Assembly (NCBI GenBank): GCA_031366795.1
Contig: JANLOX010000358.1
Coordinates: 1 to 26,711, forward strand
Direction of reading: 5' to 3'
Length of the DNA stretch: 26,711 nucleotides
Source: Candidatus Eiseniibacteriota bacterium
Lineage (GTDB): Bacteria; Eisenbacteria; RBG-16-71-46
Shown: piece by piece, positions 9,701 through 12,700 of the stretch
How positions within the stretch are numbered: the first letter of the stretch is position 1
Layout of the letters: each line of letters opens with the position of its first letter
The notes under the pieces: model-generated
Told to the model about the DNA's origin: nothing
Databases searched by the model: none
What the model saw: only the letters and a program-made list of their open reading frames with translations
Translations under genes and position numbers: made by a program

Positions 9701-12700
9701 AGTTGCGCACCGGCGGCTCCACCGTCATGAGCGGTCCGTCGACCGGCTGGCTGTGCGGCTGGCCCGTGCGCGCCAACCGCCACGGCTCCCACGGGCACGA
9801 ACTGGTGCCACCCACGAGATCGAAGATCGGCGTGCCGTAGAGGAGGTCCTTCTTCACGTTGACGCTGAACACGTCGCCGATGTCGTCGTCCGAGAGCGTA
9901 TAGCCCGAAGTCCGCGAGCTCGAGACCGTTCTCGAACCGCCGCGCTCGTAGGCGAAGTCGAGCTCGGTGACGAACTCGCCTTCCGCGCCATTGCCCGCGA
10001 ACTTGAAGTCAAAGCTGTGCGCGATCTCGGCCTTGGTGAAGACCTTGACCTTCCAGCTCGAAGCGCGGCTTTGATCGACCGTCTCGCTGTATGAGTACTC
10101 GGCACCCGCGCTGAACGAACGGTTGCGGTCCAGCGGTGCGATGCGCGTGAGCGAATCGTTCATCGCCAGATGCTGCTGCCAGTTCTCCTTGGCCGCGGTG
10201 AACTCCGCGTTATTCGCGGGGCTCAAGCGCGCCAGCTCGTCGAGCTGCGGAATGATCGTGTTGCGGATGTGCCAATCGGTGTAGCTGTAGACCGACTCCA
10301 CCTTGTCGACACCGAGCGTGACTTCCACCGACGTCTTGACCTCGCAGTTTTCCACGCGCACCACGTCGGTCTTGGCGAACAGCAGGTTCAGCGCGAGGCC
10401 GACGTAGACGTCGCCATCGCGGCCGATGAACAGGTTGTCGGCGGAGGTCTTGAACTCCTGCGTCGTCTTGGCGCAGATCTCGAGTTCATCCTCCTGCGTC
10501 GCTTCGAAGCCGACCTTGAGCCCCCCCGTCGTGTTCAATTCGGCCGTCGTCGGCAGCATGACGAACAATCCGGCAAGGATGTCGAGGCCGAAGTGGACCT
10601 TGAACTTGAACTGCTCCGAGACCCCTTGCATGCCGAGATTCGTGATCTTGGTGCAGAACGAGGAGTCCTGTCCCACGTAGCTGAACGAGTGATCCCCCGG
10701 CGGGTCATGCAGCACGAGCAGCGGAATGCCCTGCGACTCGGCCGTGAACGTGGCCGTGCGCGGACGCTGCCCGGTGACGATGGCCCACTGGATTTGCGTG
10801 ACCGGCTCCTGGCCCTCGACTTCGGCCACGGCCGTCAGCGACTTCTGGTAGGAGCGATCGTGCCCGAGCGCATCGACACGGCCTTCGAAGATGTTCGGCT
10901 TGTTGGCCGCGGTTACGTAGAGCTTGCGGCCGTTGGCCGTCTGGACCATGGCCTCGCCATTTTTGATCATGAGGACGACGGGCGTGCGCTCCTGGTCGAT
11001 GATCTCGTCGAACACGGTGACCGTACCCGTATCGACGGGGCAGCGGCCGAGCGTCGGGCCGTAGTCCTCGAACACCTTGATGGTCATCGGGAAGCGCTCG
11101 GTCTGGTTGATGACCGGAACACCGAGCGTGCAATTGGGATCGACGTCGGGCAGGCCCGAGATTTCGACCGCGAGCGGTGCGCGGTACTTGAAGTCGAGCG
11201 TCTGGTCCGCCGTCGACAGGTCCACTTCGCGTGAGCCCAGGTTGTCGAAGAACTGGATCACCTTGGCGCGGTCGAGCCCTGCCCCCACGCCCGTCACGTT
11301 GGTCACGCGGGCGAAGAACTTCATCGGCGGCAACGCTTCGAGATACGCGCCTGCGGCGGAGATGGTCCGGCTGTAGCAGCGGTCCTGGCTCTCGATCGCG
11401 ATCGTCAGCGTGCCGATCGGGATGTTGCAGCCGCCCGCCACGTTGCCCTCGAGATGGCGGACCGTGACATCGCTGAAGTTCTGGTTGCCGAGATCTCCCG
11501 CCACGTCCGTCAGGTTGACGATCGCCGGGGAGAACGTGTGATTGGCCGCGCGCGCCTCGAGCGTGTGATTGCCGGGCGGCATGGGGACCGCGTAGCGGCC
11601 CGAGACGTCAGTCGTGCCGCGCACCACGCCGTCGACGTAGATCTCGACATTGGCCGCGAGGCACGAGGTGTTCGCGTAGCTGACGATGCCTGAAGCGGTG
11701 AACGAGGTGATGTCGATGAAGCCGACCTCGTTCTGGACCGGGTTGCCGGTGGACAGCGTGATCGTCTTGAACGCCGGGTTGAACTGGTGACCCTCGATCA
11801 CCGGCGTCACCTTGAACGTCGTCGAGGTGCCGTAGCGAATCCTCGGCAGGACGTAGTTGCCCTGCCCGTCGGACACCGCGAACACCGTGAGAGGAGCCGC
11901 ATCGGGAATCCAGTGCGAGCCACCGGTGAGACGGCCGTAACGATTACCCACCGCGTCCTCGGCGCCGGCCCCCTGGTAGGCATCGAGGGGCCAATAGGCC
12001 AGGAGCGCGTGCTCGTTTCCGACGAGTACGAGGCTCTTGCTGTCGTTCACTTCACTGCCCGGGAGAATCCGGGCCCACACGCGAATGTCGTCCATCGCGC
12101 CCGAGAGTCCCGCGCCGAATGTGAGTGCGCCGATGGAGTCGATCTTTGCGGCCGCCGCGAGCGTTCCGGTGAACGCGAGCTGGCCGTCCTTGTAGACATG
12201 CAGCGACCCACTCGAGCGGGTTCTGTCGATCGCGACGTGATGCCAGCTGCCGTCGTTCACTGGGACACCAGACGCCAACGACACTCCGTTCACCAGCACG
12301 GTGAGGTTGCCCGGGTTGATCACCGAGAACGCATCCGAAGTGGTCGTGGTCGAGTGCCGCAACAGCACGGCGGTCGTGCTGGCCTCATGGCCGCGATACC
12401 AGAACTCGACCGTCAGCGAATCACCGAACACGCTACCGTTGGGCACGGTCAAAGTGCCGCCGGAACCATCGAGCAACAGAGCACGGTTCGGCGGGGGATC
12501 CAGTGTGACCTGCGCGCCGCTGACGCCTGCGCCCGCGATGGTTGAGACGCGCCCCGTGATGTTTCCGTCCGGCGGACGGCGGCCAAAGTCGCAGCTCGAC
12601 GCGGTCTCGACGCCGTTGCTCAACAGCGCGGAGACGCAGTATTCACTCGTCCTGCCCGGCTCCGCGTCGAAGTCGACGTAGCTGCGATCGTTCGCCGCCG

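Follow-up and report, generated by a model that had tools for sequence, protein, structure and literature searches.

A two-hairpin module inside a giant, probably secreted protein of Candidatus Eiseniibacteriota as a candidate beta-barrel pore former

Contig JANLOX010000358.1 of a Candidatus Eiseniibacteriota bacterium (assembly GCA_031366795.1; 26,711 nucleotides, analysed over its whole length and called the window here) encodes on its minus strand a giant adhesin-like protein, in the middle of which an earlier note on this DNA had proposed a beta-pore-forming module in which each protomer has two hairpins. Does the protein carry such a module and, if so, of which kind? The proposal is strengthened by covariation that closes the four hairpin strands into a ring, by a hydrophobic face that these strands share, by model confidence that is low mainly at the hairpins and by weak aerolysin-type neighbours, and we consider it very probable that the 335-residue core holding both hairpins forms a membrane-inserting oligomeric barrel. 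Membership of the aerolysin, anthrax protective antigen (PA), MACPF/CDC or gasdermin families, to which the hairpins had been likened, did not emerge.

For the covariation analysis, 420 unique homologous cores were pooled with the query, and 419 sequences passed the gap filter (effective number of sequences, Neff, 349); core residues are numbered as protein residue minus 2055. The four strands run over core residues 26-64 (a), 68-104 (b), 221-254 (c) and 257-290 (d), about 35-40 residues each, and pairs at their base fix antiparallel registers: a-b at a residue sum of 132 (C36-C96, z 29), a-d at 314 (F26-T288, z 24), c-d at 509-511 and b-c at 325. A scan of the distal segments alone, which leaves out the strong base pairs and ranks 46-54 diagonals per strand pair, put the same registers on top for a-b (132), b-c (325) and a-d (314), and 507, 509 and 511 as the top three for c-d. 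Parallel signals were found at 195/193 for a-c and at 186 for b-d, as expected for strands two apart in a ring. An independent hmmalign alignment of 421 rows gave the same registers, and permutation of the C-terminal halves within 40 clusters abolishes the signals for b-c and a-d. Covariation joins a-b, b-c, c-d and d-a in a closed ring. In all four hairpin segments it is of the strand type, at 1.2-1.7 for i,i+2 versus 0.4-0.8 for i,i+4, in contrast to the helical insert of the core, where i,i+4 reaches 2.2-2.4. Three conserved acidic loops covary mutually at the stem base, and the one that follows strand b is a candidate metal site.

Taken round, the ring has a net shift of 2-4 residues. Closed inside one chain, it would have a backbone diameter of 6.6-7.8 Å, which leaves too little room for side chains; one or more of the pairings should therefore lie between chains. 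This implies an oligomeric barrel to which each protomer contributes four strands (4n in all), with a predicted tilt of 21-37 degrees. Given that the a-d base contacts are the stronger, b-c is suggested as the intermolecular pairing. A shift of 2 per protomer would give a tilt of about 21 degrees, as in the CDCL pore (PMC11952106). With registers taken from covariation and not from hydrophobicity, all four strands point their hydrophobic residues to one face. In the distal rows 47-61, the outer face is hydrophobic at a fraction of 0.69 and charged at 0.04, and the inner face is hydrophobic at 0.15 and charged at 0.33 (acidic 0.22, basic 0.11); rows 24-46 are Ser/Thr-rich, with a mixed outer face. 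Rows 24-61 have the build of a stem that carries a membrane belt at its tip.

In the window protein itself, the two hairpins, the DPPG motif, the flanking cysteines and the Ser/Thr-rich flanks lie where the earlier note had placed them, on the minus strand and in frame. No other amphipathic hairpin in the chain scores as high as hairpin 1, at 4.41 against 3.99 for the 95th percentile of the maxima of 200 shuffles. The near-strict hydrophobic/polar alternation ascribed to both hairpins is an overstatement for hairpin 2, which is unexceptional when taken alone. The share of the protein's sliding windows that match or beat the four 15-residue belts is 0.1%, 2.3%, 3.6% and 13%, and Ser/Thr residues make up 43% and 62% of the hairpin 2 flanks and 17% of the whole protein. 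What had been taken for a short helical separator between the hairpins proved in the core model to be about 115 residues long and to consist of a long beta-hairpin and a 46-residue helical pair. An AlphaFold model of residues 1921-2498 (pLDDT 82, pTM 0.75) sets the core between Ig-like domains, and its confidence falls below 50 only at both hairpins; a core-only model has pLDDT 74.

The core has relatives in 1,971 representatives at the 50% identity level (E <= 0.001 to the 578-aa query), spread patchily and with several copies in some genomes. The host's phylum had matches in 11 of 206 genomes and in neither of two from its own genus; of 401 genomes sampled from the phylum to which Flavilitoribacter belongs, 17 had matches, counting the Flavilitoribacter nigricans genome, which has six. 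Viral contigs gave 110 pattern matches, none of them a relative of the core, and the genome contigs scanned with a single protein gave none (0/44); searches of the core against Pfam, NCBIfam, PHROGs and PDB sequences returned no significant match. Host proteins measure from about 750 to 5,750 aa. Their arms are variable, and the smallest complete-looking forms (756-791 aa) keep the core, together with a signal peptide, a small N-domain, an Ig domain and a type IX secretion system (T9SS) sorting tail, so that the core is the constant unit. In the homologue alignment, scaffold positions are 92-100% conserved and the hairpins keep their pattern and length, not their sequence; hairpin 2 measures 74-75 residues in 360 of 420 sequences, and Cys36 and Cys96 are both present in 244 of 419, both absent in 173 and alone in 2. 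Neither of two outcomes named beforehand as speaking against a pore was seen: the alternation is kept across homologues in both hairpins, and the behaviour of the hairpins is not that of strands in the core of a soluble beta-sandwich. Among family members at G578:C6:306475-306894, G209:C1:1944461-1945957 and G285:C16:34310-35260, one match has an internal TGA, and in two genomes the core falls into two matches in a single long frame, which suggests large insertions. No published description of the family was found in the literature searched, which did not take in most subscription papers, and members of it could stand in the family lists that supplement PMC3110756 or PMC5654971; the best reading is that it is undescribed as a pore-forming family.

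To which known pore formers is the core closest? VIA-align compared the core model with 48,161 chains and returned 44 with Z of at least 2 and none with Z of at least 5, a best Z of 7-8 being typical. Aerolysin-type proteins make up 4 of the 43 rows listed, all aligned to core residues 1-163: LSL at rank 1, matched over its pore module (Z 3.0, root-mean-square deviation 6.4 Å, 121 residues), parasporin-2, and the Salpingoeca lectin and lamprey immune protein, which we take to be of this type. Proaerolysin reached Z 2.0 on re-alignment of 996 chains. LSL and parasporin-2 are members of the aerolysin family (PMC3110756). The best PDB profile match was 7y79, 'Toxin', on hairpin 2 (E 0.16), and the named Atlas neighbours were Aerolysin, ETX/MTX2 and monalysin clusters at 0.85-0.88, leads only; the structure scores, being below noise, likewise serve as no more than a consistent lead. 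When the 578-aa model was used for fold searches, its two Ig domains dominated the matches. No MACPF/CDC, gasdermin or PA chain is among the fold-search matches listed, which does not exclude them; the twisted core sheet with a helix-turn-helix that marks the MACPF/CDC/CDCL fold and the gasdermin N-terminal fold are likewise absent from those matches. Compared with profile models, 121 members gave no match to Aerolysin or ETX_MTX2 at E <= 0.05 and none to MACPF, gasdermin or PA-family Pfam models, and one match each to Toxin_10 (E 0.016) and CEL_III_C (E 0.037). The MACPF signature occurs in 0 of 421 sequences and the CDC YGR motif in 3 of 421.

In the aerolysin family, the amphipathic insertion loop alternates polar and non-polar residues, and it is this pattern and not the sequence that is conserved (PMC3110756), as is found in the core. 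Its members have a core of five strands in which the insertion loop joins beta2 to beta3 (PMC3110756, PMC5654971); in core 1-163, predicted secondary structure and contacts fit this arrangement, with five long strands and the amphipathic loop between the second and third, and structural matches of Z 2.0-3.0 only. The long beta-hairpin at 10278-10409 would be the equivalent of aerolysin beta4/beta5. In the aerolysin oligomer, two beta-barrels are concentric (PMC5654971). A Ser/Thr-rich stem and fused variable binding domains are further likenesses to this family (LSL, parasporin-2, SaroL-1, lamprey LIP, ETX/MTX2, Toxin_10/Tpp). The core differs in its second amphipathic hairpin, which makes four strands per protomer, whereas aerolysins have one membrane hairpin per protomer (PMC9558359); it also differs in its helical insert, conserved acidic loops, mid-chain position and T9SS tail, and it has no significant sequence or structure score. 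The models weakly suggest that the core resembles an aerolysin pore module in its first half only, hairpin 2 having no aerolysin counterpart. The registers of the two halves look pseudo-symmetric; internal duplication as the origin of the halves is not supported, HHalign giving a probability of 20% with 121 sequences and of 5% with a larger set, less than the 11-13% of reversed controls.

Two hairpins and four strands per protomer are the rule in MACPF/CDC/CDCL proteins (PMC11952106, PMC9558359), and the two hairpins of the core, which pair mutually along their length, agree with this and not with the single hairpin of aerolysins. Producers among Bacteroidota are another likeness to MACPF/CDC and CDC-like proteins (CDCL, BSAP). 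In the soluble state of these proteins the hairpins are held as alpha-helical bundles (PMC11952106), whereas covariation in the core hairpins is of the strand type and no signature or Pfam match was found; neither AlphaFold model has helical bundles at the hairpins, which does not strictly exclude a transient helical state. Since the core shares the insertion-loop pattern of aerolysins but not their single hairpin or sequence, and the four strands of MACPF/CDC but not their helical bundles or motifs, we file it in neither family. Gasdermins, the bacterial ones included, also have two hairpins per protomer. They are cytoplasmic, whereas the core protein is predicted to be secreted; no sequence or listed fold match links the two, and a protease gene was not seen as a conserved neighbour of the core gene.

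The neighbourhood of the core gene was sampled at 131 loci, 85 of them with more than 600 bp upstream. At 48 of these 85 informative loci, a same-strand gene with a shared N-terminal domain lies directly upstream, mostly within 150 bp. These genes (L045, L047, L053-L055 and 43 more loci) number up to three per locus and encode proteins of 300-620 aa with a signal peptide, tail-fibre-like, variable C-termini and an N-terminal domain without a Pfam match; several match the peptidase S74 chaperone or a phage tail fibre. In a tree of 81 cores, all fibre loci but one fall in a single clade, whose records are labelled Bacteroidota, Marinimicrobia, Cloacimonadota and Lentisphaeria, so that the 48 of 85 is not independent evidence; some of the loci are near-duplicates. 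The clade of the window has no fibre gene and a much longer N-terminal arm, and the fibres may stand in for targeting domains within the giant protein itself. Three genes with the fibre N-terminal domain occur in the genome of the window, on contigs C123, C442 and C17, apart from the core gene. Elsewhere, the next gene downstream of the giant one belongs to the PorP/SprF family (L058:14240-15193 and 9 similar Saprospiraceae-like loci).

A barrel of this kind could instead sit in the outer membrane of the producing cell and serve not as a weapon but as a ring that anchors the giant adhesin, or as a platform or conduit for partner fibres, in the manner of CsgG and secretins, which are oligomeric barrels with several strands per protomer. 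Four strands per protomer would fit this role, huge adhesin-like arms suit tethering, the clade with a fibre gene upstream is large and no immunity gene was seen, yet we regard it as unlikely. The type A T9SS tail already provides anchoring or release (PMC10202324), the minimal forms carry almost nothing to anchor, and the long Ser/Thr-rich polar stem and aerolysin-type neighbours favour a pore former. The giant protein is a T9SS cargo and not a periplasmic lipoprotein, and no CsgG or secretin match has Z of at least 2. Secretins head the Foldseek list for the core, at a template modelling (TM) score of only 0.08; these matches were not confirmed, with no secretin chain at Z 2 among the 996 re-aligned.

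It is quite unlikely that the protein is the B component of an A-B system, that is, a translocon that threads a partner protein or a domain of its own into a target, as PA does. Like PA and iota-type translocons, the core has a long stem, a net acidic lumen and, in its candidate Ca2+ loops, a possible counterpart of theirs, and in one clade it has co-oriented partner genes with interchangeable C-termini behind the shared N-terminal domain. The partners tested are nevertheless tail-fibre-like or without a family match, with 0 enzyme matches, and they are missing from the window's clade and from the minimal forms. PA has one hairpin per protomer and an enzymatic partner, whereas the core has two hairpins, no sequence or listed fold match to PA and no enzymatic partner found among the clustered neighbours; the Pfam domain scan found no enzymatic domain in the giant protein, and a barrel of 4n strands is probably wider than translocation calls for. 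Very unlikely, finally, is a soluble oligomerisation stalk or tube with its hydrophobic face covered by protein: covariation reveals strand pairing and not membrane insertion, and no pore gives a significant fold match, but the hydrophobic face is limited to the distal tips, degenerate in sequence and nearly free of charge, no strong covariation with a covering element is found among the top 70 pairs, and no phage tube or other viral structural or sequence match to the core was found.

We therefore lean, with less assurance than for the barrel itself, to a T9SS-secreted modular beta-pore former of an undescribed family, with an antagonistic role. Several points weigh against it. Every structural match is below the noise level of the aligner (best Z 3.0), and Foldseek on the core gives TM scores of only 0.06-0.15 (PDB, BFVD). 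The permutation null is lenient, because within-cluster relatedness is removed too; a subgroup of 48 sequences (Neff 26) yields a-b and c-d and not b-c or a-d, and single distal pairs are modest, mostly z 1-7. Hairpin 2 of the window protein is only moderately amphipathic (2.74, tenth best in the chain). For a pore former, it is unusual to have protomers of 160-600 kDa that hold the core in mid-chain between two bulky arms. The largest neighbour clusters contain no conserved gene of immunity-like or protease type, and neither an activating protease site nor a cargo was identified.

As a pore former, the protein would be exported by Sec and the T9SS, for which the signals are observed, and its variable lectin/adhesin domains would bind the target surface. 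The cores would oligomerise laterally, with strands a-b-c-d in a continuous antiparallel sheet and b-c or d-a pairing between chains, as the geometry implies. From strand length and registers, the hairpins would extend into a barrel about 110-125 Å long, with 4 strands and a shift of 2-4 residues per protomer; its Ser/Thr-rich proximal part would be a solvent-exposed stem, and the distal 15 or so rows would span the membrane, hydrophobic outside and with a polar, net acidic lumen. More speculatively, the acidic loops at the stem base could bind Ca2+ and gate the switch. The protein may be toxic, and its FG-GAP, FN3 and LamG domains may direct it to a target, as had been proposed. We put forward only tentatively that the core is a beta-pore former of a new structural class, in which an aerolysin-like pore module gained or duplicated a second hairpin and so reached the four strands per chain of MACPF/CDC and gasdermins from a different fold, that it became a weapon with interchangeable arms in thousands of T9SS 'adhesins' of the FCB group, and that tail-fibre-like trimers from genes directly upstream serve as its targeting subunits in one large clade. 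If the pore reading is true, common proteins labelled 'LamG' or 'T9SS sorting domain protein' have gone unrecognised as pore formers in Saprospiraceae, Cytophagales, Marinimicrobia, Eisenbacteria and related bacteria. This would bear on how these bacteria of water, sludge and soil kill other cells or feed on them, and it would link the one-hairpin small-pore and two-hairpin large-pore families. The pore idea is directly testable, as cultured carriers (Flavilitoribacter nigricans, Arcicella, Draconibacterium, Maribellus) and the natural 756-791 aa forms exist.

The features of the giant gene and of the core are collected in Table 1. The likely start is the ATG at 16925; an upstream TTG would give 3,406 aa. 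Besides the families in the table, a carboxypeptidase-regulatory-like domain was matched by Pfam, and the nearest named relatives are from Candidatus Eisenbacteria (55-70% identity). Secretion, raised as a possibility in the earlier note, agrees with the type A tail and with PorV and SprA in the same genome, both above model cut-offs. With signal peptide, sorting domain and T9SS genes all present, the first judged by eye and the second barely above its cut-off, the protein is probably a T9SS cargo. The downstream cargo gene probably shares an operon with it.

Table 1. Features of the giant gene, its pore-module core and the adjoining cargo gene (positions in the window).
Feature	Position	Strand	Basis
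Gene for 3,383-aa secreted multidomain protein carrying the module	6774..16925	minus	ORF, domain and full-length-relative evidence
Probable signal peptide with basic N-terminus, hydrophobic stretch and Ala-rich end	16827..16925	minus	judged by eye
FG-GAP repeat, first propeller region	16566..16703	minus	PF14312
Best-scoring FN3 domain within FN3-like array	15219..15461	minus	PF00041
FG-GAP repeat, second propeller region	13317..13451	minus	PF14312
LamG/concanavalin-like domain	12048..12470	minus	PF13385
Ig-like domain preceding core	10761..11165	minus	AlphaFold model; VIA Z 7-8
Pore-module core (candidate), 335 aa, protein residues 2056-2390	9756..10760	minus	no library family
L-x-D-P-P-G-D loop, conserved positions at 92-99%	10692..10712	minus	homologue alignment
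Strand a, hairpin 1 outgoing; Cys 10653-10655; hydrophobic belt 10578-10622	10569..10685	minus	covariation
Strand b, hairpin 1 returning; Cys 10473-10475, paired with strand a Cys; belt 10506-10550	10449..10559	minus	covariation
Acidic/Gly loop following strand b, in covariation with the acidic loop that follows strand d	10410..10442	minus	covariation
Long beta-hairpin	10278..10409	minus	model and contacts
Two-helix insert joining the two halves of the core, 46 residues	10140..10277	minus	model and covariation
Strand c, hairpin 2 outgoing; belt 9999-10043	9999..10100	minus	covariation
Strand d, hairpin 2 returning; belt 9954-9998	9891..9992	minus	covariation
Acidic loop D-x-D-x-G-D, four fixed positions 93-99% conserved	9873..9896	minus	homologue alignment
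Ig-like domain following core	9432..9743	minus	AlphaFold model; VIA alignment
Big_5 Ig-like domain	8703..9011	minus	PF13205
T9SS type A sorting domain	6783..7016	minus	TIGR04183, 23.2 bits vs cut-off 23
Downstream gene, 4-nt overlap: 1,235-aa T9SS cargo, InlB B-like repeats and CBM4/9	3070..6777	minus	ORF and domain searches

The C-terminal arm of the giant protein (window 6777-8600, minus strand), a stretch without a Pfam match, holds two copies of a repeated domain that opens with a W-S-V/L-N/D motif. Many copies of this repeat occur in downstream T9SS genes of related loci (L021:14293-15084; L052:5830-11130; L095:10234-16665).

The remaining genes of the window are varied. On the minus strand lie a gene at 3-404, presumably patatin-like by its motif, which continues beyond the window edge; a 302-aa open reading frame at 1172-2080 that matches the DNA polymerase B model at positions 126-443 only and is possibly a truncated or split PolB; and, at 24675-25475, a gene for an ice-binding-like protein (PF11999) with a lipoprotein-type N-terminus. 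The plus strand encodes a DUF4337 protein (535-1191), a GDSL lipase (2249-3100), a short-chain dehydrogenase (17228-18211), an OmpA/glycine-zipper protein (18839-19522), a Ser/Thr kinase fused to a PD40 beta-propeller (19714-22566) and a nitronate monooxygenase-like protein (22635-24089).

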